The notes: generated by a model from the letters alone, not told the origin. 64,000 nt of DNA from Candidatus Bipolaricaulota bacterium (GCA_025060555.1 JANXBC010000001.1:8904-72903), one strand, 5' to 3'. Positions 11,895-29,762 are shown, numbered from the stretch's first letter. Program-made: numbers and translations.

Positions 11895-14387
11895 TTACGG
11901 GGGATTAGCAACGGACACGGGTTGGCGTAGTTCACCCAGCGGCCGGATTTCCCGCGCCCGCGGGAGCACACGGATCTCGATGGTCCGTGACTCACCAGCC
12001 GTAAGGACTAGGACGTAAACCTCTTGCTCCACATAGTGCGGTGGCGCCATGGGGGGAAGCTCTACCCGGAGCTCCCAAGTCCCGGGGCAAAGCCCCTGGA
12101 AGAAGAAGCTTCCGCGGTCGTCGGTGAGCGTGCTATGCCGTACGGTTCCGTTGGTGAGGATCACCCTGGCCTGCGCTAGGGGGCGGTCCACCACCCACGT
12201 GTTCTTGTTGGTCAAGGTGAGCGCGTTGCCCGCTGGCCGGTAGGCGAGGACGTGGCCAGAGAGCGTGGCTGCGGGGACGAGGGCAATGCGTACAGTGGTT
12301 ACTTGACCCGCAACGATGCGCACGTTGAGAGGGAGCTCAGGCTGCGGGCAATAAAGGGGCATGGGGGTCAATATCTGAAGCTGGTAGTTTCCGGGGGCCA
12401 TGGGATAGAACCGGAATGCCCCTCCTGTTCCGGTCAAAGCCTGCTCCTTATCCAATTGCAACAGGACCCCTTCCAGGCCACGCTCACCGGGATCTTGAAC
12501 GCCGTTGGCGTTCTCGTCCACAAACACCACCCCCTCCACCCGCCCCATGGTCTCGAACAAGGGGAACGGCGCCTGGAAGCGTGCTTCGAAGTTAAGTCCT
12601 AGGAAACCCTGTTTCTTTGTAACCTGCGCGGTCCAATCCGCACCGCGCAGGCAAAAGCTGAGTTCTTCTTCACCCAAAAGGACCAAGCGGAGCTCACCCC
12701 AAAGCCCCATCGGGAAAGGAAACGTGGTCCCAAGGCAAAGCTCGCTTCGCACCGTGCCCGAAAACCACTGGGTCACCTCACCCGCCATGCAGAGGGAGTA
12801 ATTGGTGGTCGACCAATATGTGAGGTGACCCTTCAAGGTGAAAGTGGCCACGGAGACGGTGGCGAGCCGGTCAGCGGAGCTCAAGAATTCGCCAAGGATG
12901 GACCAGGAAAGCGGGCGCGCGCTGTCATAAAACCCTAGGCACAGCTTGGTATCCAGCGTATCCAACGACGCTGGACCTTCGTCGCGCTTTCCCTCGAGCT
13001 CCAAGGAAACGCGGAAATGCAGGGTACGCAAGAAGTTTGGGCTGAAGCCAAGGCGCCCAAGCACCCGAATACAAGTTCCCTCCCCAGTGTAAGAGAAACG
13101 CGCAAAGAAGGGCAACCACTCCCCACAAAGGCCTACGGTAACCTTGGAACCCCAGGAAAGTTCCCCGGAAATGGCCGGGCTTCCATGGGTGGAGATGCTC
13201 AGGGATGGCGAATTCCCCACTTGGAATTTGAAGGAAGTTTGGTCCGAGAACAGTGTCCCCAAGAGGACGAAATCATCACCAAGTTGAGAATAAAGGTCCA
13301 GCAAAATCTTATCTAGTCGGAAGTAAAAATGGAAGAGGGTTTCTCCGTCGTAGAAATAAATTGTGGATTGGTAGGCGCAAGCCAAGGGATGATAGGAGTA
13401 CCGTAGACCCAGGCCGCTTACGTCCCCGATAGGCGTGGTATAGCCTATTTGTCCCAGCCGTATTTCCCAAGACGGTTCACGGTACTCCACCCATCCGTCC
13501 AGAAATTCTCTTCCTTTTGGCGAAAGCGCGAGTTTCCCAGTTGCGGCGGCGTAACGGTTAGGGGCGATCATCCCGCCTAGAAAGAGGCAGAACTCCGAGG
13601 AGAAGCTATCTGTGAGCTTTCCGGTCCAGGAGAGCCGCGCGGGGACAAGGGGAAACAGGGAGATGGAGACCCGCTCTGGCGGCGGAGGCAGAACCGTTGT
13701 CCAGATCCAGCCCGCCTCATAAACCTCAGGATCGGCTAAAGACCGCACCGTGACCCAGCAGCCGCTGCGCTCCCCAGGCTTTGCCGTTTCCGGGAGGCTG
13801 AGGCTCAGCGTGACCTCTGCCGCCTCCCCGGGCATGAGGTGCACCACGCGTGGAAAAAGGTCAAAACGCCAGGGCGTGTTCACCTCGACCTGGAAGGAGT
13901 CCAAGACGTTCCCGCGATTGATCACCCAGAGGGTGTAGGTGATTTTTGTGCCCGGCCAAGCCTGGGTACCTGCGGGAAGCCGAAGCTCTACCCCGGCTTG
14001 CGGGAGCACAAGCACGCGGGCCTTAGTTTCCGCAGTGTGAGCGGGCACGGTGTGGCTTTGAACCCGCACTCCAATCTCATGTTCCCCTGCCGGCGTCAAG
14101 GCTGACACGAACAGCGAGACCAGTACAACCTTGGTCTCGCCCGGCCCGAGCTCTACCGTCTCCGGGGCCACGAGAACTGAAATCCCTGGGGGAAGAGCAA
14201 ATGAGACCCCGTATGTATCGAGAAAATTCGCCAGGTTTGTGAAGCGGAAGGCGAGGGTGGTTACGGAGCGCGGGGCCACCGTGCGCTCCGGAGAGATACA
14301 TACCAGGGAAACCGGCGCGGCGAAAACGAAAGCGGAAAAGAAGCCCAGAAGAACGGCGCTGAATAACGTCTTCTTCCCGGGCTTCAT
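11895..14387 (-). CDS. Locus A large protein: signal peptide, NEW3/CARDB-like Ig domains, central beta-barrel-like region, SdrD-B/CarboxypepD_reg-like C-terminal domains (putative usher-like or anchor component)
   Basis: ATG at 14387 preceded by GAGGGGG. Signal peptide MKPGKKTLFSAVLLGFFSAFVFA. Repeats of the type LGPGETKVV.V.L. The ~370-aa centre shows amphipathic beta-strand periodicity and ends FEARF. The C-terminus carries VFVDENANGVQDPGE and DDRGSFFFQGLCPGTWEL motifs. The function is inferred. Confidence 0.85.
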   Translation of the reverse strand: MKPGKKTLFSAVLLGFFSAFVFAAPVSLVCISPERTVAPRSVTTLAFRFTNLANFLDTYGVSFALPPGISVLVAPETVELGPGETKVVLVSLFVSALTPAGEHEIGVRVQSHTVPAHTAETKARVLVLPQAGVELRLPAGTQAWPGTKITYTLWVINRGNVLDSFQVEVNTPWRFDLFPRVVHLMPGEAAEVTLSLSLPETAKPGERSGCWVTVRSLADPEVYEAGWIWTTVLPPPPERVSISLFPLVPARLSWTGKLTDSFSSEFCLFLGGMIAPNRYAAATGKLALSPKGREFLDGWVEYREPSWEIRLGQIGYTTPIGDVSGLGLRYSYHPLACAYQSTIYFYDGETLFHFYFRLDKILLDLYSQLGDDFVLLGTLFSDQTSFKFQVGNSPSLSISTHGSPAISGELSWGSKVTVGLCGEWLPFFARFSYTGEGTCIRVLGRLGFSPNFLRTLHFRVSLELEGKRDEGPASLDTLDTKLCLGFYDSARPLSWSILGEFLSSADRLATVSVATFTLKGHLTYWSTTNYSLCMAGEVTQWFSGTVRSELCLGTTFPFPMGLWGELRLVLLGEEELSFCLRGADWTAQVTKKQGFLGLNFEARFQAPFPLFETMGRVEGVVFVDENANGVQDPGERGLEGVLLQLDKEQALTGTGGAFRFYPMAPGNYQLQILTPMPLYCPQPELPLNVRIVAGQVTTVRIALVPAATLSGHVLAYRPAGNALTLTNKNTWVVDRPLAQARVILTNGTVRHSTLTDDRGSFFFQGLCPGTWELRVELPPMAPPHYVEQEVYVLVLTAGESRTIEIRVLPRAREIRPLGELRQPVSVANPP

Positions 14388-14395
14388 GTTCCCCC

Positions 14396-15205
14396 TCATC
14401 TGGCCTCGAGTGTTACTTGGGCACCCCACACGCACTCATCCAGGTTGTCCACGATAAGGAGGGCGGGGTAGGTGCCGGGCTTGAGGAGGGGCAAAGCGAT
14501 GGTTTGGCGGACTGAGCAACCAGGAAGGATCGTACGCTGAGTTTCCACCGCGAACCGGCCTAGATTTTCTCCCTCGGTACTGTAAAGCTCCAAATACACC
14601 ACCGGCCGGAGACGCCGCTCACCCGTGTTCTCCAGGTCCACTTGGAACACGAGCCCTTCCTCCGTCCGGTTAACCCTTGCGTTTGATAATCTCAAATTGC
14701 ACGCCCCCAGGGCTCCGGCGATATCGGTGATCACGAGCACGGCGTATTGCACAATCTGCACCACGCCCACCACGATTTCGCCCGCCCCGGCCAGCGGAGG
14801 GGCAGGCGCAGCGGGGGTGATGAGTATTACACACCAGTAGCTGCCCCGAAGCATCGGATCCGCCGGAACGTTGATACGGTAACGCACAACGGTTTCTTCA
14901 CCGGGGCCCAAGGTGAATTGCTTGGGAAAAACTTCCAGCCAGCCTGCGTTCGTGCGGGGGTTCGTGCCCGGCTCGGCGTAAGCAACCCGACCATCAGCGT
15001 ACATGAGAAAATCACGTATGCTGACATTGACCGTCACCACTCCCTCGGACTTGCTGCGCACAACGATCTCACCGGAGTAGGTGCGACCTGGCTCCACGAA
15101 AAATTCGTGTCGGAGGCCGCCCTCGATCTCCACCACGGGCATTGGTTGGCCACCTACCACCAAGGAAAGGAACACCGCTAATTCCATCCCTAAAAGGATT
15201 TTCAT
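14396..15205 (-). CDS. Locus A secreted two-Ig-domain protein (DUF916/DUF3324-like, PapD-chaperone-like architecture)
   Basis: Signal peptide. Segment AGWLEVFPKQFTLGPGEETVVRYRINVPADPMLRGSYWCVILI aligns by eye with the locus B homologue (25833-26858). Confidence 0.85.
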   Translation of the reverse strand: MKILLGMELAVFLSLVVGGQPMPVVEIEGGLRHEFFVEPGRTYSGEIVVRSKSEGVVTVNVSIRDFLMYADGRVAYAEPGTNPRTNAGWLEVFPKQFTLGPGEETVVRYRINVPADPMLRGSYWCVILITPAAPAPPLAGAGEIVVGVVQIVQYAVLVITDIAGALGACNLRLSNARVNRTEEGLVFQVDLENTGERRLRPVVYLELYSTEGENLGRFAVETQRTILPGCSVRQTIALPLLKPGTYPALLIVDNLDECVWGAQVTLEAR

Positions 15206-15464
15206 GCTCCACCTCTAAGCCGCCTGCCGTTGTTCATCCGCTGTGCTGGCCGCGCTCCTAGTTTTTGTCCTTGAGGCTTCCCAGCAAAGACGGCGCTGCT
15301 GGCACAGAAAGCGCGTTGAGCGCAGGGAAGATAAATCCACGAAAGACAGCAAAAAGAACGGACAAGAATCGCTTAAGGTTGCGAAATACTATGATCAACC
15401 CCGTTTTTGCCCGGCACAACCTGGTTTGGGAAAAACCATGGAGTCCGAGGTCTACCCTACACTG

Positions 15465-15941
15465 TTAGTCAAGCTGCGCCAGCGTGTAGACCAGGGTGAT
15501 CGTGAAAGTTGCGCCAACGAAACTACGATCGGTTACACCGCTTGCGTCAACCATGAGGTACACATCCCTCGTTTGGTCCTGACCAGGGGCGATATCAGTG
15601 TAAAGCCGGACCGCCTCATAAAGCGGGCCTTCAAGGTCAAGCTCGGCCCAATCGGTCCCATTCGTGCTGATCTTGAGGACGAAGCCCGTGGGAACAGTCC
15701 CAGTAATGCTCTGCACACCCACTTGGATATCGCGGTTTGTATGGTCTGTGGTGTATGTGATCGTGAGCTTACCGCTCGTTGCAAAGGACAATCGCGCAAC
15801 AGTTATATTCAAATGCGCCGGAGCAATTATCCTGTCAGGATATGCTGGGTCTATGGTCACTGTGACAGTCTGTGTCGCGGTTACCGCTAATACCCGCAAG
15901 CTAAACCCAAGAATTACCGATGCCAAAATTGCCCTGCGCAT
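15465..15941 (-). CDS. Locus A small secreted beta-rich subunit (pilin-like, 158 aa)
   Basis: Signal peptide MRRAILASVILGFSLRVLA. Strong RBS AAGGAGAAGGAGGTG and its own promoter. The C-terminus ATFTITLVYTLAQLD is shared with the C-domain of the 16105-17058 product. Confidence 0.9.
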   Translation of the reverse strand: MRRAILASVILGFSLRVLAVTATQTVTVTIDPAYPDRIIAPAHLNITVARLSFATSGKLTITYTTDHTNRDIQVGVQSITGTVPTGFVLKISTNGTDWAELDLEGPLYEAVRLYTDIAPGQDQTRDVYLMVDASGVTDRSFVGATFTITLVYTLAQLD

Positions 15942-16023
15942 CCGCCCACCTCCTTCTCCTTAACCCACAACCGCGTCCGTCTTCCTGTGCAAATCTTTTT
16001 CTGAACAACAAAATAAGCACTTT

Positions 16024-16052
16024 ATTATGATCTTGGAAAAGTATGTCGTCAA
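16024..16052 (-). promoter_or_regulatory. Near-consensus sigma70 promoter for the small-subunit gene of locus A
   Basis: On the minus strand: TTGACG (16052-16047), 17-nt spacer, CATAAT (16029-16024). Confidence 0.6.
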
Positions 16053-16104
16053 TAGCTGGACATTCGTAGCTAGCGCGATCCCGCAGGGCAAAAATAAAGG
16101 ATGC

Positions 16105-17058
16105 TCAGCTTATTAGCAGTGTGTAGACTAGAATGACGGTGAGGGAAGCTCCCACGTAACTCCGTGGTACCTCACGCGCCTCTACTTTCAGCTGCAGGGT
16201 AAATGAACCGGATCCGGAGAGATTTGTAACTATGGTCACAGCGTTGTACGGCTCTGAAAGCGGGAGTTCTACGTAACCTAGCTGCGCTGGCCCTTTCACC
16301 CACAGGCGTAACCCCGGGGGAACCGCAGGATAGACGTTCTGTACTCCCACGATAATGCTGCCTCCCGGAGGAACATAGGAATAGGTAACTATGAGGTCTT
16401 CGCTTTCCGCAACGGCCCCGCGCGCCACCCGGGGGCTCCAATCACTAGGGGCGGTGATATTGGGAAGCGCGTAGTACACAGTGATCTCCGCCGCGTCCAC
16501 GAAGCGTGTGCCTGCCGTGGTTCCAGACCCCACCCGTAGGCCAAAGCCCTGGGCGTTGATGTCCGCCGCTGTCCAGGAAGTTCCCCAAAGGTCCGTTGCG
16601 CTGCCCCAAGATTTCCATCCTGTTTCCGTGCAAGTGGTAGCCACACCTGGGCTAACTGTCTTATGACTTCCCACACGATTTCCGTTCTTAAGGAGAAAAA
16701 GGCCGAAGGCCCCGGCGGCGCTATGGCCGGCCTTGAGGGAAACTTTTATCCCAAGGATCGTGGCCATGGCGGGGATTTGGAAACCAAAGCCGCCAAGATA
16801 GAGATAAGCGTTGTTCTCGGTGGTTGTGGCACAGGTACCGTCAGCGGTGCGCAAAGCACTGCCCGCCGCAAGCCACGGGGTGGGAGCATCGGGCTCGTTT
16901 GGGAGAACAACACCCGCAAAACGACTCTGAAAATAGGGCTGGCAAAATGCCCGATAAGGTAAGAAGACCACCAAAGCTAGAAACGAAACTAATAGAAACA
17001 TGCTGCAAAAGCTTCCTTGCCTAGCAGGCCCTGCAAGCCTTCCCATGAATTTTAGCAT
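16105..17058 (-). CDS. Locus A two-domain secreted protein: novel N-domain plus subunit-like C-domain (tip-adhesin-like); start uncertain (17109, 17058, 17046 or 17001)
   Basis: Hydrophobic signal MFLLVSFLALVVFLPYRAFC. The N-domain shares the pattern IP..I.GI.V ... TDLWG..W ... VD...I.VYY with the locus B protein at 24862-25791. The C-domain ends SLTVILVYTLLIS, like the 158-aa subunit. Confidence 0.8.
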   Translation of the reverse strand: MLKFMGRLAGPARQGSFCSMFLLVSFLALVVFLPYRAFCQPYFQSRFAGVVLPNEPDAPTPWLAAGSALRTADGTCATTTENNAYLYLGGFGFQIPAMATILGIKVSLKAGHSAAGAFGLFLLKNGNRVGSHKTVSPGVATTCTETGWKSWGSATDLWGTSWTAADINAQGFGLRVGSGTTAGTRFVDAAEITVYYALPNITAPSDWSPRVARGAVAESEDLIVTYSYVPPGGSIIVGVQNVYPAVPPGLRLWVKGPAQLGYVELPLSEPYNAVTIVTNLSGSGSFTLQLKVEAREVPRSYVGASLTVILVYTLLIS

Positions 17059-17312
17059 CCTAAAAATTGCCCCGAATATTTCCCCCAAACTGCGAAAGGA
17101 ATGATACAACGGCCATGCGCGGTTGTGGAGTGAGGCCGGAAAATATGCGGTTTAATGCATGGCAATTGTGCCTGGGTGTTTAGCACCCGCGCGTATGTAT
17201 TCAAGCGGACATTTCCAGCGCTGTTTTTCCATAATTCGTTTCCAACCTTGACATCCACTTTCGGCCTGGTAACATTGGCCCTTCGGTTTTGGCTATATAA
17301 AGGACGGGGAGA

Positions 17313-22593: not shown

Positions 22594-23451
22594 TTGAAGG
22601 AGAAGGAGGTCATTGTGCTTAGGCTGGTTTTGCTTGTGCTGCTTGGTACCGCCCTTGCCGGGATGGCCCAAGGCCCGGTGGAGGAGCTTCTTTCTCAGGC
22701 CGATGCCCTTTACGACTGCGGGCATGGCAACTTTGAATTCACGGAGTATGAGGCGCGGCTTAGGGAAGCGATCAGCATCTGGGAAGGGGTTCTTCCTTTG
22801 CTGAACGACAGGGAAAGCCGACGTGCGGTTCTTGTGAAGCTTTCTCGGGCCTGGTTTGAACTTGCCGAAGGGTATCTCCAAAAGGATCAAGACAAAGAAG
22901 CAGCTTACAAGAAGGGCAAAGATTACGGGCTTAGTGCGCTGCGGTTGGACGGGGGGTTCGTGCTTGTGGAGGGGAAAGAGGGTTTTCGCGCAGCTTTACA
23001 AACAGCCTCGGATGTGGAGGCGCTCTTTTGGTATGGGAATAACCTTGGGCGTTGGTTAGCTTACCACTATTGGGAGGCATTGACGGGTGGGACCCGCGAT
23101 GTGTTTGCGGCGTTTGCGCGGTGCGCGGAACTAGATGAGAGCTATTGGGCGGGAGGGCCACGCCGCGCGCTCGCTAATTTTCTCGCCCAGACCCCAGGAT
23201 TCCTGGGCGGGGATTTGCAAAGGGCCAAAACAGAGTTTCAGCGGGCCCTGGAGCTCGCTCCCCATTTCCTCCAGAACTACGTGGATTATGCGGAGCATTG
23301 GGCGAAGAAAGTTGGGGACAGCGCGCTCTTTTGCTCATTAGTAGAGGAAGCTCTGAGACGAGGCGCAGAGCCGGAGGTTTTTTGGTCCTGGCCATTCTAC
23401 AACACTTTGGCCTTGCGGCGGGCGGGAAGTTTGCGCCAGGAATGCCGGTAG
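22594..23451 (+). CDS. TatT-family TPR-like secreted protein or lipoprotein (TRAP-T-associated family); no TRAP genes nearby
   Basis: Signal peptide. ALFWYGNNLGRW and YWAGGPRRALANFLAQTPGFLGGDL motifs are typical of the TatT family. Confidence 0.65.
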   Translation: MKEKEVIVLRLVLLVLLGTALAGMAQGPVEELLSQADALYDCGHGNFEFTEYEARLREAISIWEGVLPLLNDRESRRAVLVKLSRAWFELAEGYLQKDQDKEAAYKKGKDYGLSALRLDGGFVLVEGKEGFRAALQTASDVEALFWYGNNLGRWLAYHYWEALTGGTRDVFAAFARCAELDESYWAGGPRRALANFLAQTPGFLGGDLQRAKTEFQRALELAPHFLQNYVDYAEHWAKKVGDSALFCSLVEEALRRGAEPEVFWSWPFYNTLALRRAGSLRQECR

Positions 23452-23461
23452 TGTGCATCAC

Positions 23462-23489
23462 TTGACACCAGTTTACAGTGGTATATAAT
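23462..23489 (+). promoter_or_regulatory. Near-consensus sigma70 promoter driving the riboswitch leader of locus B
   Basis: TTGACA (23462-23467), 16-nt spacer, TATAAT (23484-23489). Confidence 0.65.
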
Positions 23490-23555
23490 GGAAGCACCTG
23501 GACAAGGATCCGGGTGAAAGGGGTGAGCAGGGCAGCCTAAGGGATCGGAAGACCG

Positions 23556-23648
23556 CCTGGCCTTCCGATAAAGGCAAACCCGTCGCAAGGCGGGGGCGCA
23601 AAGCCACAGGTCCCTCAGGGACGGCTGGGCTGCCGAAGAATGGCCAGG
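23556..23648 (+). promoter_or_regulatory. c-di-GMP-I (GEMM-I) riboswitch aptamer, copy 1 (core 23565-23638)
   Basis: Contains GGCAAACC. Helix CCCGUC/GGCGGG is capped by the GNRA loop GCAA. Also GCGCAAAGCC, hairpin GUCCC-UCA-GGGAC, and GGGCUGCCGAAG. Closing helix CCUGGCC (23556-62) pairs with GGCCAGG (23642-48). Confidence 0.8.
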
Positions 23649-24083
23649 AGATGGCTGCTGTTCATGATGGCATGCGCTTTGGGCTTTCCGGGCCTTGCCG
23701 GAAGTGTCTCCCGAACCGCTACCGTCTCCCTTTCCATCCCCGCCTTGAGCGTTCTTTCTCTCCCTGGGCGAGGGCTTTCCGGTCGGGAAATAGAGCTGGA
23801 GATTAGGCCCGATGAGCTGGTCCAGGGCGTTCTGCTCGTACCCCTTGAGGTAAAAAGCAATGTTCCGTGGGCGGTTACGGCACGGGTTCTCGCCGAGGCT
23901 CGTGCCGATCCCGTAGTCGGAGTACAGGGCGGCCCGGAGGTCTTGGTGGGAACGGAAGAGATCCCCCTCCTCTCGGGTCGGTCGGGGAAACATGAGCTCA
24001 CCTTGGTTGTAAAATTGGCCAATCTGGGGCAAGCACAGGACAAGGTGAGGCTCATGTTGAAGATAGCGGGAATGGGTCAATGA
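23640..24083 (+). CDS. Small secreted protein (147 aa), divergent paralogue of the locus B subunits; possibly decaying
   Basis: Signal peptide MARRWLLFMMACALGFPGLAGS. TATVSLSIPALSVLSL and VKSNVPWAVTARV parallel TATFTVPTLIRLQLS and VWSNRPWTLSVAA of the next gene. It lacks the C-terminal YTL motif. A competing antisense frame exists. Confidence 0.5.
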   Translation: MARRWLLFMMACALGFPGLAGSVSRTATVSLSIPALSVLSLPGRGLSGREIELEIRPDELVQGVLLVPLEVKSNVPWAVTARVLAEARADPVVGVQGGPEVLVGTEEIPLLSGRSGKHELTLVVKLANLGQAQDKVRLMLKIAGMGQ

Positions 24084-24132
24084 GGGACCCAGTTGGGAAA
24101 GGAGGTGAGAGCCGAAAGAAGATTTAGGTGTT

Positions 24133-24219
24133 GGGGTGACCGATAAAGGCAAACCCGTCGCAAGGCGGGGGCGCAAAGCCACAGGTCCCTCAGGGACGGC
24201 TGGGCTGCCGAAGCACCCC
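24133..24219 (+). promoter_or_regulatory. c-di-GMP-I (GEMM-I) riboswitch aptamer, copy 2 (core 24140-24213)
   Basis: The core is 74/74 identical to copy 1. It has a different closing helix: GGGGUG (24133-38) pairs with CACCCC (24214-19). Lies 66 nt upstream of the 24285 start codon. Confidence 0.8.
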
Positions 24220-24284
24220 AAGAGAAGCCAAAAACTCCCGGGGCAAGGAGGCCCGGTAAACAAAACTTCTCTTGGAGGTGCTCA

Positions 24285-24800
24285 ATGAAGAGCGTGAAGG
24301 TTTTGGCGGTTTTAGTGGCTGGAGTGATGGGCGTGGTGAGCGGGATGGCTCAAAGTGTGACAGCGAACTCCACAGCGACGTTTACGGTGCCGACGTTGAT
24401 TCGGTTGCAGCTCAGCGCTTCCACCATCAACTTCGGGACCCTCACCGAGGGTGACTACGATGTGGGCTACAAGGACGCCCTGAGCGCCCAGGTCGTGTAT
24501 GTTTGGAGCAACCGGCCTTGGACGCTCTCCGTGGCGGCGAACAGCGCGGCCTGGAACGGCCCGTGGGCCAAGCCCGCAAGCGACCTGCTTTTGCGTGTGG
24601 CTTCCGTGAACCGGCCGGAGCGCATCTCTTATTACCTAAACACCCTCACCGGCCTCACCACGAGCGGATTCACCGTTGCCCAGGGTCAACCGGGCGGGAA
24701 CTTCCAGCACACCATGGACTTCCGCGTTCTGGTGAGCTGGGACAACGACGTGGCCGGCAACTACTCGCTCGGCTTCACCTACACCCTCACCGCGCCGTGA
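24285..24800 (+). CDS. Locus B small secreted beta-rich subunit (pilin-like, 171 aa)
   Basis: RBS GGAGGTG. Signal peptide MKSVKVLAVLVAGVMGVVSGMAQS. The C-terminus is NYSLGFTYTLTAP. Confidence 0.9.
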   Translation: MKSVKVLAVLVAGVMGVVSGMAQSVTANSTATFTVPTLIRLQLSASTINFGTLTEGDYDVGYKDALSAQVVYVWSNRPWTLSVAANSAAWNGPWAKPASDLLLRVASVNRPERISYYLNTLTGLTTSGFTVAQGQPGGNFQHTMDFRVLVSWDNDVAGNYSLGFTYTLTAP

Positions 24801-24814
24801 CCCAGCGAAGGACG

Positions 24815-24852
24815 GGCAGCCCGGCTCCAGCGAAGAGCCGGGCTGCCTTTAT
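24815..24852 (+). terminator. Perfect 13-bp GC-rich hairpin after the small-subunit gene (attenuator or partial terminator)
   Basis: GGCAGCCCGGCTC (24815-27), loop CAGCGAA, GAGCCGGGCTGCC (24835-47), then TTTAT. Confidence 0.55.
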
Positions 24853-24861
24853 CCCGCTTCC

Positions 24862-25791
24862 ATGACCCGCAAACTCTTCCTCGGTTTAGTGGCATGGGGC
24901 CTCCTCGCGCTCCCCCTGGGGGCTCAGGACACAGGTTGGCGCAACCCCTCGCAAGACTATGGGGATTTTCGCAATCCCAAAGGGGCGTATTATGACGACA
25001 CGGATTACGCCTGGGCGGAACCCGGCCAAACCCACATCTTCTTTGGTTATGAATTCCTTATCCCGCAAACCGTAGAGATCGTGGGGATCGAGGTGCGTCT
25101 GGATGTTCGGCGCCACCCGGCAGGTGGGCCGTTCGTGGCGTATCTGGATGTGCAGCTTTCCGGGGACAGTGGCGCGACCTGGACGCGGGCCTACACTGCC
25201 GGCCCCATTGAGAGCGATTGGTCGGTCTTTATCCTGGGTGGCCCCACCGATCGGTGGGGAAGGGTCTGGCGTCCCGAGGAATTTGAGCCTTCCACGTTCA
25301 GGGTCCGCCTCACAGCCTGGGCGCCGCGCTGGCCCACGATTTACCTGGATTGGGTGGCTGTGCGCATTTACTACAGCACCGGCCTCACTCTAGAGGTGGC
25401 CCCCAAAACGGTGTCCTTGGGCACGCTCACCCTCGTGGACTACGACCAGGGTTATTTGGACCGTCTGGGAGCCCAGGCCGTAGAGCTCCGCAGTCCGGCC
25501 ACTTGGATCTTGTCCATCGCAGCGGTGCGAGCGGTCTGGAGCTACACCGGAACTCTGCCCGACCCCAAAAAGCCTTGCGGCCACCTCCTCTGGCGGGTGG
25601 AGTATGCCGAGGGCTCCGTGGACGCGGTGGAAAAGGACTTCATCCCCCTTTCCCTTTCAGAGCGGGCGGTGGCCAAGGGCCGAGCAGGCATGGCTAAGGT
25701 CAGCCTGAGCTTCCGCCTCCTTGTGGACTACGACACCACCTGGCCCGGCACCTACTCCCTGGACTTCCGCTACACCCTCACCAGCCCTTAG
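24862..25791 (+). CDS. Locus B two-domain secreted protein: novel N-domain plus subunit-like C-domain (tip-adhesin-like)
   Basis: Signal peptide MTRKLFLGLVAWGLLALPLGAQD. The C-domain segment TVSLGTLTLVDYDQGYLDRLGAQAVELRSPATWILSIAA parallels the 171-aa subunit. Ends YSLDFRYTLTSP. Confidence 0.9.
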   Translation: MTRKLFLGLVAWGLLALPLGAQDTGWRNPSQDYGDFRNPKGAYYDDTDYAWAEPGQTHIFFGYEFLIPQTVEIVGIEVRLDVRRHPAGGPFVAYLDVQLSGDSGATWTRAYTAGPIESDWSVFILGGPTDRWGRVWRPEEFEPSTFRVRLTAWAPRWPTIYLDWVAVRIYYSTGLTLEVAPKTVSLGTLTLVDYDQGYLDRLGAQAVELRSPATWILSIAAVRAVWSYTGTLPDPKKPCGHLLWRVEYAEGSVDAVEKDFIPLSLSERAVAKGRAGMAKVSLSFRLLVDYDTTWPGTYSLDFRYTLTSP

Positions 25792-25832
25792 ACCTTGTGC
25801 CGAAGTTTTCCTTCCCCCAAGATTGCCCTCGT

Positions 25833-26858
25833 ATGAAGCGTGCTTTCCTCCTTAGCTTTTTCTTCGTGGGTTTCCTCGGTGCAGCTTTCGAAGTGAACCT
25901 CCTGGAGGTAGACCTCCAGGCCCGACCTGGCCTAGTCCTTCCCTTCTCGTTCATTGTCAGGAACGAACTCGCTCAGCCTGAGCAGATTGTCCTTTACCTC
26001 GGCGACTGGGACCGCAACGAGTTCGGGGAGAATCAGTTTTACCAACCCGGCACGCTTGCCCGCTCCTCCGCTGCTTGGATCACCGTGGTGCCCACCTCCT
26101 TCGTTCTTGGGGCCGGCGAGGTGCGGGAGATCCAGGGTTCGGTGCAGATCCCTAACGACGCCAAACCCGGTACTTACTGGGCCATGGTATTCGTCCAAGG
26201 TGAGCCCCGCCTTGTCCCGTATGAAGGGGTTATGGTCACTGTGACGCGCCGGATCGGCATCAAGGTTTACATCACGGTTGAGCCCGCGGAGGCGCGCGGT
26301 GAGCTTCGGGGCGTGGAGGTGCGCGGCCTCAATCCGCTTTGGGCCTGGGTGAAGTTTGCCAACACCGGCACCCGGAACCTGCGGGAGGTCCGGGCCACGC
26401 TGCGAGTGGTGGATGTACAGGGCCGTACCGTGGCGGAGGCCAGCGCCGCACCTGTGCCGTGCCTTCCCGGCGCGGAGCGGTGGATCCGGGTGAACACGGA
26501 TTTCCGCCCCTCGCCTGGGGTGTACCAGGTTCTCGCCACCGTGGATTACGGCGGTGAGGCTCTCCTAGGCTTGACCCTGCGTTTGGCCGTTCGTCCCCTC
26601 TCCTTGTTTCCCTTGGGAGAAGGGCTTGGGATCCCTCAAGACCTCGACGGCAACGGGTTCTACGAGGACGTGAACGGCGACAGCCTCTTCAATGAGGTGG
26701 ACGTAGAGGTCTTGAGGGGGAACCTCATGAGCCCGGTCGTGCGTGCCAACCTCCGGGCCTTTGATTTCAACAACGACGGGGTTGTGGACGAGCAAGACGT
26801 AAAAGCTCTAGAAGCTCTCCTCGCAGCCATCCCGGCCAAACTTCCCGCCGGAAGATAA
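25833..26858 (+). CDS. Locus B secreted two-Ig-domain protein (DUF916/DUF3324-like, chaperone-like) with a C-terminal dockerin-like module; alternative GTG start at 25797
   Basis: Signal peptide MKRAFLLSFFFVGFLGAA. Segment AAWITVVPTSFVLGAGEVREIQGSVQIPNDAKPGTYWAMVFV is homologous to the locus A protein. C-terminal motifs DVNGDSLFNEVDVEVL and DFNNDGVVDEQDVKAL. Confidence 0.85.
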   Translation: MKRAFLLSFFFVGFLGAAFEVNLLEVDLQARPGLVLPFSFIVRNELAQPEQIVLYLGDWDRNEFGENQFYQPGTLARSSAAWITVVPTSFVLGAGEVREIQGSVQIPNDAKPGTYWAMVFVQGEPRLVPYEGVMVTVTRRIGIKVYITVEPAEARGELRGVEVRGLNPLWAWVKFANTGTRNLREVRATLRVVDVQGRTVAEASAAPVPCLPGAERWIRVNTDFRPSPGVYQVLATVDYGGEALLGLTLRLAVRPLSLFPLGEGLGIPQDLDGNGFYEDVNGDSLFNEVDVEVLRGNLMSPVVRANLRAFDFNNDGVVDEQDVKALEALLAAIPAKLPAGR

Positions 26859-26903
26859 CAAAGCTCTCCCAGACTTAGGTCCTGCGGTCCCATAATTCCC
26901 CGG

Positions 26904-29762
26904 ATGCGAGTTTTTGTCGGCGTGACCCTCGCGGGGTTTCTCGCCTTAGGGCAGGGCCTGGAACTCCTCCGCCTTTCCCCGCCGGCGAAAGTCCGCCCCG
27001 GTGATTTTGCCGTCCAAGTTTGGCAGATCGCCAATCGCTCCCCTTCGCCTATACAGGCCAAATTGCGCCCAGAGATCCCCGCGGGCTGGGAGATCCTAGG
27101 GCTTCCCGAAGCTCTTTCCCTTGGCCCTGGGGAGGAGGAGTTTCTTTTCCTCACGCTTTACGTTCCGCGCACGGCCAAAAGCGGGGTGCAACCGGTGCGC
27201 ATTCTCCTTCGCTGGGATGGGGAGGAGGTGGTTGCGGAGGCTACGGTGGAGGTGGAAACCGTGGCTGCTCTCATCCTTTCTCCCCCGGCTTCCCAGGCCG
27301 CCCCGCCAGGCGCGTCCCTCACATTTCCGCTCCGCGTGACGAACCGGGGAAATGCCCTGGACCGTGTCACCTTAGAGGTGCGCACCGCCGCGGGCTGGCG
27401 AGTGGAAGTGAGCCCTACTGAGCTTCCCTTGGCCCCTGGCGAGACGGGCGAAGCCCGTGTCACCCTGACCCTTCCTGCGGAGGCCCAGGTGGGACTGGAG
27501 GTAGTCTTGGCTACGGCCCGTTCAAGTCTTGCCCCGGAAGTGGAGGCCCGCACTGCCTGGTACGTGGAGGTCCTTCCCCCTGGGCCGGAGCGCGTCCCCG
27601 TGCAGCTTTACGCAGAATTGGCGATGCAGGGGCTGGCGCGTTTGGCCTACGACTTCCTTTCCGGGACCGGCACCTCGTTTTTGGGTTTCACCGGCCGGGG
27701 GACTGTGCTCGACGGGGCTTTGGAGCTTGCCGCACGCTGGTCCGGCCCTTGGGCCGCCCAGCCCTTCCAACTTTTGGATTTCCAGGCCACCTACGTTACG
27801 GACGCTTTAGAGATGCACGCCGGCCGGGTGGGCTTCGCCTTCGATTCCCTCCTTTCCCCGCTTGGCTTTTGGGGCCTGGGCGCGGAGCTTTCCCTTGGGG
27901 ATGTAAACCTGGCTTTGGGCTCGGGCTGGGAAGGCGAGCGTGGCAGGGCCGGTGGGCGGTTGACGTTGCGCGCCACATGGGGTGAGACGGGCAGTGCCTA
28001 CCGAGAAGAGCGAGGCAGTGATCGGCACAGCCAAGCCGGCACGATTTGGCTCGCCCTCCAGGCCCTAGAAAACGTGCGCTTCCAGGCCGAGGGCGGCGCG
28101 GCCCAGGTGAACGGCCTCACCCGCTTCGCCGGAGAAATGCGCCTCACCTGGGAGATCCCCGAACTTTTCCTCCTCGAGGCCCGCGGGTATGCCGTTGACC
28201 CGGGTTTCCCCGCCCTTTCGCCGGATCGGGTGGGGTTCCTCCTTTCCGGACGTTTGGGCGCGGAGGAGGCCGGCTTCCGTTTCACCTGTGAGTGGCAACG
28301 CGATAACCTCCGTGATCTTTCCCGCACTACACGCGTTTGGCAAGGGGCACAGGCAAGCTGGGATTTCTTTCCCATTGGGTGGCCTTTGCACTTTGGTTTC
28401 GGCCTTTCTTTGCGGCGCGCAGCCGATCTCTCGCTTTCGCCCATGCTGGATGAACGCACGGCCCACGCCGAAGTCATCGCTTCTTTCTCCTACCAAGATT
28501 TCACCCTCGGCGCGCAAGGGACATACACTTATTTTCAAAACCTTGTCTCTGGCTTCGCCTGGACGCGGGTTGAGTCTCGAGAATGGCTGGATCTTCGTTT
28601 TTCCCCGAATGTCTTGGTCTCCGTAGAATTTCGGCAAGCACGCTTTTCTTCTCCGAAAGAGGAAAGGACACAAGATGAGGCGGCATTGGTCCTCTCTGTG
28701 GACGAAAAGCTCCGGCTTTCTTGGGAGTATGGGTGTGCAGGTGGTCTAGCCCGCGCGGAATTCACCTGGGAGCCCGCCGCGGCTTTGACCATAAAGCTTG
28801 GGGCCGAGGCCAACTGGCAAGAAGCTGGACGACCCTTACGCTTCGGGGCCTCTTTGGAATTCACTCATAGCTTTTCTTGGGCTCCGCCTTTCTTGCCCGC
28901 CTTTGGCGTCCTTTCCGGCATAGTTTTTGCCGATTTAAACGGAAACAGCCGCCGTGATCGGGGTGAACCCGGCGTCCCTGGAGCAGTCCTCGCCCTCGAC
29001 GATGTCCAGGTTTCCTCCGGGAAAGACGGGGAATTTCGCTTCCCTGCGCGGGCACCCGGTGTGTACACGTTGCAAGTAGTACACACTCCCGCGGGGTACG
29101 CGGCCCCCCTTCACGAGCTATTGGTTTCTCTCGAGCTTGGGGAAAAGATGGAGATCGCCCTTCCCCTTTTGCCTTTGGCGAGGCTGGACGGCCTAATTTT
29201 TCTTGACGTCAATGCGGATGGGGTCTGGACGCCGGGCGAACAAGGTTTAAGTCGGGCTTATGTGCGCATTGTTCCTTCGGAGGGGAAGGTGCTCGAGGTT
29301 CCTTCCGATAGCCAGGGCCGATTCAGCTGGCCCGAGCTTCTTCCGGGGAAATATCGGGTGGAACTGGTTTTGGAATCCCTTCCTCCGCGTCACGAGCCGA
29401 CCACGCCAGTGGTGGCAGAGCTCGTTTTGCTGCCCGGAGAGAAGAAGAACGTGACTTTTGGCGTACGGGAGCGGCCCCGCCCGGTGGTAGTGATCCAGCC
29501 GCCGTTAGCAGATTTCACCTGGACGCCAAGCATTCCCAAGGCTGGTGAACCCGTGCTCTTCGACGGCACCCTCTCCCAGGCCTTCAACGGCGAAATCGTG
29601 AGCTACGCCTGGGATTTCAACAATGATGGCCACGTTGAGGCAGAAGGTGTGCGAGTAACCTGGGTTTTCCCGGAAGCGGGCTTCTATCTTGTCGCCCTCA
29701 TTGTCACCGACTCCGCTGGCTTCACCGGCCAGACCCAGTACCTTCTCCAAGTTCGCCCCTAA
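26904..29762 (+). CDS. Locus B large protein: signal peptide, NEW3/CARDB-like Ig domains, central beta-barrel-like region, SdrD-B/CarboxypepD_reg-like repeats, C-terminal PKD domain
   Basis: Signal peptide MRVFVGVTLAGFLALGQG. Junction LPPGPERVPV is shared with locus A (LPPPPERVSI). A ~430-aa amphipathic-strand region ends SLEFTHSF. Also VFADLNGNSRRDRGEPG, and PKD motif YAWDFNNDG...TDSAG. Confidence 0.9.
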   Translation: MRVFVGVTLAGFLALGQGLELLRLSPPAKVRPGDFAVQVWQIANRSPSPIQAKLRPEIPAGWEILGLPEALSLGPGEEEFLFLTLYVPRTAKSGVQPVRILLRWDGEEVVAEATVEVETVAALILSPPASQAAPPGASLTFPLRVTNRGNALDRVTLEVRTAAGWRVEVSPTELPLAPGETGEARVTLTLPAEAQVGLEVVLATARSSLAPEVEARTAWYVEVLPPGPERVPVQLYAELAMQGLARLAYDFLSGTGTSFLGFTGRGTVLDGALELAARWSGPWAAQPFQLLDFQATYVTDALEMHAGRVGFAFDSLLSPLGFWGLGAELSLGDVNLALGSGWEGERGRAGGRLTLRATWGETGSAYREERGSDRHSQAGTIWLALQALENVRFQAEGGAAQVNGLTRFAGEMRLTWEIPELFLLEARGYAVDPGFPALSPDRVGFLLSGRLGAEEAGFRFTCEWQRDNLRDLSRTTRVWQGAQASWDFFPIGWPLHFGFGLSLRRAADLSLSPMLDERTAHAEVIASFSYQDFTLGAQGTYTYFQNLVSGFAWTRVESREWLDLRFSPNVLVSVEFRQARFSSPKEERTQDEAALVLSVDEKLRLSWEYGCAGGLARAEFTWEPAAALTIKLGAEANWQEAGRPLRFGASLEFTHSFSWAPPFLPAFGVLSGIVFADLNGNSRRDRGEPGVPGAVLALDDVQVSSGKDGEFRFPARAPGVYTLQVVHTPAGYAAPLHELLVSLELGEKMEIALPLLPLARLDGLIFLDVNADGVWTPGEQGLSRAYVRIVPSEGKVLEVPSDSQGRFSWPELLPGKYRVELVLESLPPRHEPTTPVVAELVLLPGEKKNVTFGVRERPRPVVVIQPPLADFTWTPSIPKAGEPVLFDGTLSQAFNGEIVSYAWDFNNDGHVEAEGVRVTWVFPEAGFYLVALIVTDSAGFTGQTQYLLQVRP

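Follow-up and report, generated by a model that had tools for sequence, protein, structure and literature searches.

A five-gene locus of Candidatus Bipolaricaulota with cyclic di-GMP-I-type aptamers and a chaperone-usher-like architecture at the level of predicted fold

What might five adjacent genes for secreted proteins build together when two of them each follow a riboswitch of the cyclic di-GMP (c-di-GMP) type? The question is raised by Locus B (positions 23462-29762, plus strand), which lies in a stretch of 64,000 nucleotides (nt) from Candidatus Bipolaricaulota (hereafter the window; 57% G+C) and whose proteins carry the names 'hypothetical', 'dockerin' or 'PKD domain-containing' in public records. 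An earlier reading made from the sequence by itself (the sequence-only reading) had described a promoter, two riboswitches and a hairpin interleaved with five open reading frames (ORFs) in an order that recalls chaperone-usher operons, and every one of these elements lies where it had been placed (Table 1). In sequence, ORF2, ORF4 and ORF5 agree at 100% identity with proteins from a metagenome-assembled genome of Candidatus Bipolaricaulota (Acetothermia). The observation is confirmed, and its chaperone-usher-like interpretation is supported at the level of fold; none of the outcomes that the sequence-only reading had named as refuting it was observed. We propose, at a probability of roughly 0.6, that Locus B encodes a donor-strand-exchange surface-fibre (pilus) system that follows chaperone-usher logic. 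The proposal starts from the parts, their order and conservation, their fold-level matches and the identity of the aptamers, and it is from these that we infer fibre assembly.

Table 1. Features of Locus B and of the paralogous module, Locus A, with positions counted from the first nucleotide of the window; aa, amino acids; Ig, immunoglobulin
Feature	Nucleotides	Strand	Residues	Remarks
Promoter, sigma-70-type	23462-23489	+		TTGACA-16 nt-TATAAT; 12/12 consensus match
Extended P1 helix, riboswitch 1	23553-23649	+		predicted; encloses ORF1 start codon
Aptamer 1, GEMM-I / c-di-GMP-I clan	23564-23638	+		RF03167, 75.1 bits
ORF1, secreted, putative divergent pilin paralogue	23640-24083	+	147 aa
Anti-sequestor, 5' arm of riboswitch 2 P1 extension	24131-24138	+		predicted; UUGGGGUG, eight bases directly 5' of aptamer 2
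Aptamer 2, GEMM-I / c-di-GMP-I clan	24139-24213	+		RF03167, 74.8 bits
Shine-Dalgarno-sequestering hairpin, riboswitch 2	24212-24282	+		predicted; masks GGAGG at 24274-24278
ORF2, putative major pilin	24285-24800	+	171 aa	strong GGAGG Shine-Dalgarno sequence
Intercistronic hairpin after ORF2	24814-24848	+		14-bp G+C stem
ORF3, putative two-domain tip subunit	24862-25791	+	309 aa
ORF3 N-terminal domain	24922-25350	+	~aa 21-165
ORF3 C-terminal pilin domain	25378-25788	+	aa 173-309
ORF4, accessory protein	25833-26858	+	341 aa	mechanical ORF start at 25797 gives 353 aa
ORF4 dockerin	~26661-26816	+	aa 277-328	Dockerin_1, E 3e-7
ORF5, putative usher-like outer-membrane protein	26904-29762	+	952 aa
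ORF5 two N-terminal Ig-like domains		+	aa 19-223	from model
ORF5 26 consecutive long antiparallel strands	27618-28880	+	aa 239-659	from model; loops of at most 10 residues
ORF5 two SdrD_B/transthyretin-like domains		+		C-terminal side
ORF5 PKD domain	29499-29738	+	aa 866-945
Locus A, paralogous module	11895-17109	-		334-aa two-domain, 158-aa small, 269-aa accessory and 846-aa usher-like proteins

The largest product, ORF5, had been credited with a barrel-like centre, and the predicted structure bears this out. An AlphaFold2 model built from a 28-sequence alignment reached a predicted local distance difference test (pLDDT) score of 90.0 and a predicted template-modeling score (pTM) of 0.59, the latter as expected for loosely coupled domains, and it places three β-sandwich domains after the run of 26 strands; Pfam recognizes NEW3, SdrD_B/CarboxypepD_reg and PKD in the protein. 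The top Foldseek matches of the model were FimD (9fy9_D, E 3.4e-16), 3rfz_B and PapC (7lhg_C), with ushers continuing down to E 1e-9 and usher alignments of ~750 columns, and below them stood isolated usher pores (2vqi, 3ohn), LptD, OprD-type porins, MOMP and BtuB. The model thereby supports an usher architecture for ORF5, in which a predicted outer-membrane barrel is flanked by β-sandwich domains. The Omp-alpha/Omp-beta outer-membrane tether of the Thermotoga type is found in Bipolaricaulota (bioRxiv 10.1101/2021.05.31.446380), which are without lipopolysaccharide (LPS) genes (PMC6092417); with a Thermotoga-like outer membrane in this phylum, an outer-membrane pore is plausible.

The subunit side of the proposal was followed up through the predicted structure of ORF2, in which a signal peptide leads into a conserved N-terminal extension (~aa 24-38) followed by an Ig-like body. 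The segment S29-L41, which follows the signal peptide, is near-invariant across the family and fits a donor strand, and the family ends in an invariant YTLTA, with P as the next residue in all but one sequence. The all-β AlphaFold2 model of ORF2 (pLDDT 90.3, pTM 0.79) was compared by Foldseek with 350,542 chains, and ranks 1 and 2 went to the fibril proteins TLP-1a (9ikj_A, E 2.8e-5; template-modeling (TM) score 0.56 when normalized to the query and 0.42 when normalized to the target) and TLP-1b (9ikk_A, E 1.2e-4). The next fold matches were chaperone-usher pilins, namely CfaB, PapA, PapE, the pilin domains of FimH and PapG, CsuA/B and CS17 (E 2e-3 to 6e-2, Foldseek probability at least 0.9), while protomers of an archaeal thread (7pnb) and of a bundling pilus (7ueg) came lower (E 0.03-0.04). 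A profile of the ORF2 family run against solved sequences gave chains labelled 'TLP-1' (E 0.0091) and 'TLP-2' (E 0.0039), which are the TLP-1a/b fibril proteins, as its sole PDB matches; these tentative matches are limited to ~63 N-terminal residues, including the W-x-L strand, and a weak C-terminal strand. Together the model and its matches support a donor-strand-type Ig-like pilin fold with an N-terminal extension for ORF2.

Pfam and NCBIfam hold no family for ORF1, ORF2 or ORF3. A HMMER search of 1.84 billion representatives returned 1084 ORF2-family clusters, defined at 50% identity, at E <= 1e-3, a number that falls to 367 at E <= 1e-10, and two-domain proteins of the ORF3 type are among them; the close family is essentially confined to Bipolaricaulota. 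Given the size of the larger family, the system is probably common in nature. No meaningful Pfam family was found in any of 148 subunit-family members, and Fimbrial and SCPU had no match in the subunit-family scans; a single member matched DUF4402 (E 4.5e-4), which we take to be a fimbria-related family. Three established pilus classes were considered for these subunits and rejected: Type V (Bacteroidia) pili because the ORF2 leader has no lipobox cysteine, sortase pili because the five products include no sortase or related Pfam family, and type IV pili because mature ORF2 has an all-β fold and no hydrophobic N-terminal helix. Pfam detected no further families in the five products, a scan that did not extend to a specific search for the LPXTG motif or of the neighbouring genes.

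ORF3 had been described as a two-domain subunit with a subunit-like C-terminal domain, which holds at the level of sequence: its residues 177-309 align with residues 41-171 of ORF2 at 39% identity (E 2e-19). The pilin domain is fused directly to the N-terminal domain, the same arrangement as in tip adhesins, leaving no free N-terminal extension; ORF3 would accept a strand and not donate one. The N-terminal domain gave neither a Pfam match nor a PDB sequence match and is homologous (E 6e-15) to that of the 334-aa protein of Locus A. This ~145-aa domain common to ORF3 and the Locus A protein (16500-16950) contains the motifs GY.F.IP....I.GIEV, GG..D.WG..W and LDWVAVR.YY. We read ORF3 as a putative tip subunit whose N-terminal domain is a putative binding domain. 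ORF1, conserved in more than 20 loci at 30-68% identity, is linked to ORF2 by a family-to-family hhalign comparison (probability 97.6%, E 4e-12), which points to a divergent pilin paralogue that may serve as a minor subunit, a terminator or an anchor. Hydrophobic leaders of the Sec-signal-peptide type, as judged by eye, stand at the N terminus of each of the five products.

The accessory protein, ORF4, has the two Ig-like domains that the sequence-only reading assigned to it, here again recognized by sequence, and these are preceded by a signal peptide and followed by a type I dockerin that the reading had missed; among its homologues (n = 55) the dockerin occurs in 36/38. The same reading had likened ORF4 to DUF916/DUF3324 proteins, a guess now backed weakly but specifically. 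When a profile trimmed of the dockerin and extended with the distant modules described below was searched against 177,635 solved sequences, the sole significant PDB match was EfmWxLIP1 (9i25_C, E 0.0038-0.0043), the WxL-interacting protein (WxLIP) of Enterococcus faecium, which aligned colinearly over both domains. Pfam WxLIP_PGBD, the former DUF916, matches 8/13 and 9/38 ORF4-family members (best E 3.6e-4), and Pfam scans of the family gave no match to DUF3324. ORF4 thus appears, by a weak but specific signal, to be a distant WxLIP (DUF916/DUF3324) relative. PapD_N gave one non-significant match in the family (E 0.11, one member). We regard ORF4 as a putative chaperone of the subunits.

These genes are conserved as a set. 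A genome scan, with one genome per species and a 32-sequence ORF2-family alignment as the query, gave 23 loci, 22 of them from Bipolaricaulota/Acetothermia (a few labelled Thermotoga/Thermotogaceae) and one from Planctomycetia, and ORF1-ORF5 run colinearly in all Bipolaricaulota loci of sufficient length. The Bipolaricaulota modules sit in at least three different genomic contexts. Records titled 'uncultured Thermotogaceae', 'Thermotoga sp.' and 'Candidatus Hadarchaeota archaeon' (L009, L015, L024; P0296) also carry the Bipolaricaulota-type module, at 44-85% identity, and are likely mislabelled or mis-binned metagenomic contigs.

More distant modules were assessed with hidden Markov models (HMMs) built without any paralogue from the window. 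In Locus A these models match the accessory protein (E 2.5e-29) and the barrel protein (E 2.5e-87), and the 158-aa protein gave no significant pilin match (E 0.07), having only a C-terminal VYTL motif in common. The gene order of Locus A differs from that of Locus B, its accessory protein extends no further than the second Ig-like domain and has no dockerin, and its 846-aa protein has no PKD domain. Further modules were found in L003 (9343-14974; accessory E 6e-31, 998-aa barrel protein E 2.9e-41, three tandem pilin-like genes) and in L030, a Planctomycetia metagenome-assembled genome (6658-13401; accessory E 2.6e-28, 936-aa barrel protein E 1.9e-56, four tandem pilin-like genes). Each of these two has one accessory and one usher-like gene and is without a two-domain tip like ORF3. 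In both lineages the barrel family occurs together with the pilin and accessory families. L030 also contains a 221-aa ORF without a match. In all three distant modules Rfam detected no riboswitch, in Locus A not even at E <= 1, and Pfam detected no dockerin and no PKD domain. Dockerin (ORF4) and PKD domain (ORF5) thus co-occur in the Locus B lineage and are both absent from three distant modules; the dockerin might dock ORF4 onto ORF5, an association of one lineage against three and accordingly weak.

How might these parts work together? All five proteins would be exported through their Sec leaders to the periplasm of a toga-type diderm, where ORF4 would lend a strand to the pilin-domain proteins and so cap their incomplete Ig fold. 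The predicted ORF5 barrel, with its periplasmic Ig-like domains, would form the assembly and secretion pore. ORF3 would enter first, as the tip, its pilin domain serving as strand acceptor and not as donor, and ORF2 would polymerize behind it with the N-terminal extension as the donor strand. ORF1 would be a minor subunit, possibly a terminator or an anchor.

Relative amounts of these proteins may be set in part by the hairpin that follows ORF2. Its strength had been pointed out by the sequence-only reading and stands (-38.8 kcal/mol, z = -5.65, with 0/200 shuffles folding equally well); the attenuator role given to it there is the more conditional part of the claim. A terminator scan made no call at this position because the U-tract (UUUAUCCC) is weak, and we suggest that the element acts as an attenuator or as an mRNA 3' stabilizer. 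In the proposed scheme, it would ensure that more major pilin is made than products of the assembly genes downstream. The promoter at the head of the locus was scanned against a sigma-70 consensus, which may not be that of the host; a shuffle of the region is expected to contain only 0.9 sites that match the consensus at 9/12 positions or more.

Both aptamers, called c-di-GMP riboswitches in the sequence-only reading, are genuine members of Rfam clan CL00126, which they match over the full model (gathering score 59; E against RF03167 5e-16 for aptamer 1 and 7e-16 for aptamer 2), and they differ from one another at the first base only. The class assignment needed refinement: the top Rfam model is RF03167, the 'GGC' variant of c-di-GMP-I, yet at the variant site the window RNAs carry A in place of the consensus G (GCA-AA, against GCG-AA in RF03167). 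To the two window aptamers we added 46 from related loci (L001-L029), giving a set of 48, of which 39 are unique. Site A47 is A in 44/44 readable aptamers, the pattern not fitting the other 4 of 48, site G20 is G in 47/47, and site C92 is C in 44/44 readable aptamers; the replacement of A47 by G, which is the hallmark of the GGC variant, occurs in 0/44. G20, A47 and C92, in Vc2 numbering, are contacts to the ligand. In two orthologous loci the best model for the second aptamer is the canonical RF01051. RF03167 thus seems to catch this lineage by overall shape and not by an altered pocket, and since the pocket nucleotides are of the canonical c-di-GMP type, c-di-GMP is the likely ligand of both aptamers.

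The aptamers are as persistent as the genes behind them. The position of aptamer 1 is occupied in 20 related loci, aptamer 2 is kept 5' of ORF2 in all related Bipolaricaulota loci, and there are two aptamers per locus wherever the contig covers the upstream sequence of both genes. In L006 a GAF-GGDEF diguanylate cyclase gene (GGDEF E 1e-40) directly adjoins the module, and Bipolaricaulota should therefore be able to make c-di-GMP. This cyclase (13452-16504, minus strand, at least 1453 aa, with PAS domains in the precomputed full-length annotation) converges on the module end and places c-di-GMP synthesis beside its putative target. A third aptamer of the same type lies ~2.5 kb 5' of the module in L006 (4603-4677) and L028 (4600-4674), ahead of a 107-aa ORF and a gene for a Na+/Ca2+ exchanger. 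In the window, antisense ORFs of 288 aa (23397-24263, minus strand) and 146 aa (23615-24055, minus strand) overlie ORF1 and both aptamers, and many further ORFs of at least 60 aa overlap the true genes of Locus B; all of these look like by-products of high G+C and not like genes. At its other end the locus abuts, at the 3' end of ORF5, a convergent ornithine carbamoyltransferase gene.

The sequences flanking the two aptamers suggest different outputs. At riboswitch 1 the P1 arms CCUGGCC (23554-23560) and GGCCAGG (23642-23648) can form a duplex of -16.2 kcal/mol; a flank-flank duplex is predicted in 20/20 loci, at -10 to -18 kcal/mol, and the arms covary in several of them, for example GGCC to GGUC with GGCC to GACC. 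The ORF1 start codon, AUG or in some loci GUG, lies 1-2 nt past aptamer 1 in 20/20 loci and one base past it in the window, and no Shine-Dalgarno sequence precedes ORF1 in any of the 20. The P1 extension pairs over this start codon and codons 2-3. Riboswitch 1 would accordingly act as an OFF switch for ORF1 translation, the ligand-bound P1 extension covering the start codon.

At riboswitch 2 the anti-sequestor UUGGGGUG (24131-24138) is complementary to CACCCCAA (24214-24221), and the two can form the P1 extension. The competing element is a hairpin whose 5' arm, CACCCCAAGAGAAG, lies directly 3' of aptamer 2 and pairs with CUUCUCUUGGAGGUG, burying the ORF2 Shine-Dalgarno sequence (-37.7 kcal/mol, z = -4.7). 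The P1-extension duplex is predicted in 19/19 loci, although it is weak (-7 kcal/mol) in some, and its arms change together, reading GGGGUG/CACCCC in some loci and GAGGU/ACCUC in most others. A counterpart of the sequestering hairpin is likewise predicted in 19/19 loci, and in several the two arms of its stem both differ. Riboswitch 2 is most simply read as a translational ON switch for ORF2 of the kinetic kind, in which the ligand would lock P1 and its extension, block the masking hairpin and so turn ORF2 translation on. If the signs are opposite in this way, high c-di-GMP would raise the ratio of major pilin to ORF1. Rod length in type 1 pili is set by the terminator-to-major-subunit ratio (PMC10673952), which makes the idea of ORF2 going up while ORF1 goes down more plausible.

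Several observations weigh against a donor-strand-exchange pilus system with an usher-type pore, and the first group concerns ORF5. Its TM-scores in Foldseek are modest (0.25-0.41) and against ushers low (0.25-0.39), with root-mean-square deviations to ushers of 15-21 Å, and generic Ig-like domains may supply part of the Foldseek score. Its secondary-structure string shows 26 strands instead of 24 and no plug-sized insertion: no ~80-aa insertion separates strands 6 and 7, and the longest inter-strand loop has ~10 residues. SdrD_B and PKD domains are typical of exposed adhesins, and ORF5 could display them instead of using them in the periplasm. The sequence-only reading had recognized no classical PapD, usher or Fimbrial motifs, and the profile methods agree: Pfam Usher, PapC and Fimbrial match none of the five proteins at E <= 1, hhalign gave a probability of 0.2% between the ORF5 family and five E. 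coli ushers and of 1.3% between the ORF4 family and six PapD-type E. coli chaperones, and the link of ORF4 to WxLIP proteins is made at E ~0.004. The ORF2 monomer model is silent on whether a strand is missing, and the ON and OFF signs of the riboswitches are deduced entirely from complementarity.

Among alternatives, the one that survives best is a static WxL-type surface complex, in which ORF1-ORF3 would not polymerize and would be held for good by a strand from ORF4, as has been proposed for WxL and WxLIP of Firmicutes, with ORF5 doing no more than translocating or anchoring them at the outer membrane; we consider it unlikely. By eye, W79-T-L and the C-terminal YTLTAP of ORF2 resemble the dual WxL motif, ORF4 is apparently a distant WxLIP relative whose dockerin suggests stable anchoring, and the parts list is that of the commonest WxL cluster (PMC10599100). 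The Pfam WxL domain (PF13731), however, is found in 0 of ~180 subunit-family members (none in 32 at E <= 10, none in 148 at E <= 0.01), and the solved folds nearest to ORF2 are those of polymerizing pilins and TLP-1 fibrils. A conserved N-terminal extension on one subunit, next to a tip-like subunit that has none, fits ordered polymerization; the tandem pilin-like genes of L003 and L030 recall pilus operons; and a static complex has no need of an usher-like pore.

We judge it quite improbable that ORF5 is instead an adhesin or porin in its own right, of the type of an inverse-autotransporter-like anchor, or a structural protein of the toga, with the small proteins being unrelated, co-transcribed parts of the envelope or sheath. 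SdrD_B, CarboxypepD_reg and PKD domains occur widely in exposed adhesins, the barrel is matched by porins, LptD and BtuB too, usher TM-scores are low and a plug domain is not visible. Against this, ushers outrank porins and intimin-type anchors by at least nine orders of magnitude in E-value, in each of four module types the barrel protein is accompanied by the pilin and accessory families, and the even strand count would leave both sets of flanking domains on the same side of the membrane, as in ushers. Least credible of all, and very improbable, is a self-assembling donor-strand fibre made with neither chaperone nor usher, of the type of TasA, archaeal threads, bundling pili or cannulae, with other roles for ORF4 and ORF5: donor-strand polymerization without a chaperone is documented (bioRxiv 10.1101/2024.12.30.630787) and gives it a precedent, and 7pnb and 7ueg are among the fold matches of ORF2, yet they rank far below TLP-1 and the chaperone-usher pilins, subunits in a diderm must still cross the outer membrane, and the conservation of ORF4 and ORF5 goes strictly hand in hand with that of the pilins.

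If the locus does encode a chaperone-usher-like pilus system, it would be an unannotated one in a phylum whose dedicated genome study of 2018 found no pilus, fimbria or adhesin genes (PMC6092417) and whose first isolate shows pili at the toga ends, without assigned genes (bioRxiv 10.1101/2025.11.21.689855). Chaperone-usher architecture would then reach deep-branching, LPS-less diderms, from parts with no detectable sequence relation to the families tested. It would tie usher-based pili to WxL clusters, with a bearing on what became of surface machinery when outer membranes were lost, and it would offer a genetic foothold on the TLP-1 fibrils. Two near-identical aptamers in one operon with apparently opposite outputs would be a compact and directly testable design. 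The Pam pilus of the Candidate Phyla Radiation (CPR) shows that chaperone-usher analogues recognizable by fold only are now emerging elsewhere (bioRxiv 10.64898/2026.03.03.709456).

These implications can be assembled into one joint reading, which we offer as speculative and doubtful when all of its parts are taken together: an ancient pilus pathway of diderm Terrabacteria and other phyla, with this operon as its type example, which would unite the origin of WxL clusters, TLP-1 fibres, the pili of Bipolaricaulota and the control of fibre length. Within it, the Firmicute WxL/WxLIP clusters would descend from the pathway, with the usher-like pore lost along with the outer membrane; the pathway would build donor-strand-exchange fibres of the TLP-1 type and so supply these orphan environmental fibrils with a first gene cluster and a machinery for assembly; it would explain the unassigned pili of the first cultured Bipolaricaulota; and the opposite-sign riboswitches would set the terminator-to-major-pilin ratio, and hence fibre length, by c-di-GMP.

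Comparison with known systems places Locus B closest, in overall plan, to the chaperone-usher pili of Proteobacteria (Fim, Pap, CFA/I, archaic Csu/CupE). In common with them it has a major pilin gene followed by a putatively attenuating hairpin, a putative tip subunit made of two domains of which the C-terminal one is a pilin domain, a two-Ig accessory protein, presumed periplasmic, and a large predicted outer-membrane barrel with flanking β-sandwich domains whose nearest folds are FimD and PapC; the nearest folds of ORF2, once TLP-1 is set aside, are CfaB, PapA, PapE and CsuA/B, and ORF1 may be a growth-terminating minor pilin comparable to FimI and PapH (PMC10673952). It differs in that no sequence or profile similarity connects it to the PapD-type chaperones, ushers and Fimbrial-family pilins tested, and for want of detectable homology to the E. 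coli chaperones and ushers we call it chaperone-usher-like and not a member of the chaperone-usher class. Whereas ushers have 24 strands and a plug, ORF5 has 26 predicted strands and no insertion of that size, with NEW3/ASH-type Ig domains at its N terminus and SdrD_B and PKD domains at its C terminus. The accessory protein is WxLIP-like and bears a dockerin, the host is an LPS-less, toga-type member of the Terrabacteria, and control is by riboswitch.

In Firmicutes, WxL clusters most often combine a small WxL protein and a WxLIP with a large protein that ends in a WxL domain, and AlphaFold2 predicts that a strand of the WxLIP completes the WxL β-sandwich (PMC10599100). Locus B resembles these WxL (Csc) clusters in pairing a small single-domain protein and a large one that carries the same domain at its C terminus, behind a putative N-terminal binding region, with a two-Ig accessory. 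Unlike them, it has no detected WxL Pfam domain in its subunits, it includes an usher-like outer-membrane protein, and it belongs to a diderm host and not to a monoderm with an exposed peptidoglycan wall; where a WxLIP has a transmembrane helix, ORF4 ends in a dockerin, and in Locus A, L003 and L030 the homologous proteins lack any C-terminal domain that Pfam can detect. In the literature consulted we found no link between WxL clusters and donor-strand or chaperone-usher assembly.

The names TLP-1a and TLP-1b stand for fibrils from pond water, seen by cryogenic electron microscopy (CryoSeek, PDB 9IKJ/9IKK), for which organism and genes are unknown; TLP-1 forms an 8-nm tubule by n+4 donor-strand exchange between secreted protomers that carry an N-terminal donor strand once the signal peptide has been cleaved off, and its nearest predicted relative (UniProt A0A2M8AA21) comes from Flavobacteriales, again with genes and assembly machinery unknown (PMC11494351). 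TLP-1 is the best structural match of ORF2, aligned over the whole 236-residue TLP-1 chain, and the tentative sequence-profile match takes in the N-terminal donor strand and the strand after it as well as the W-x-L strand. In contrast to the ~236-aa TLP-1 protomer, mature ORF2 has 149 aa, at 16% identity.

The Pam pili of CPR bacteria are also donor-strand-exchange fibres whose chaperones were found by fold only, and their pilins are reported to be exclusive to the CPR (bioRxiv 10.64898/2026.03.03.709456). As proposed for Locus B, the operon comprises a tip pilin, several pilins and two-domain chaperones (bioRxiv 10.64898/2026.03.03.709456). By contrast, the chaperones of the Pam system have a PapD/FimC-like fold and a transmembrane helix as their anchor, and the Pam assembly model keeps all steps at the inner membrane and includes no outer-membrane pore.

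Finally, control of an adhesin by a c-di-GMP riboswitch is established for the collagen adhesin of B. thuringiensis (PMC4933901), and tandem arrangements of c-di-GMP riboswitches have been reviewed (PMC9481103). The aptamers of Locus B resemble GEMM-I riboswitches in scoring well above the Rfam threshold and in keeping the canonical G20, A47 and C92, and they differ from the GGC variant, to which Rfam assigns them as RF03167, in the absence of its defining G. They differ from tandem riboswitches as well, in that each aptamer precedes its own pilin gene within one operon, where the flanking helices suggest opposite signs.

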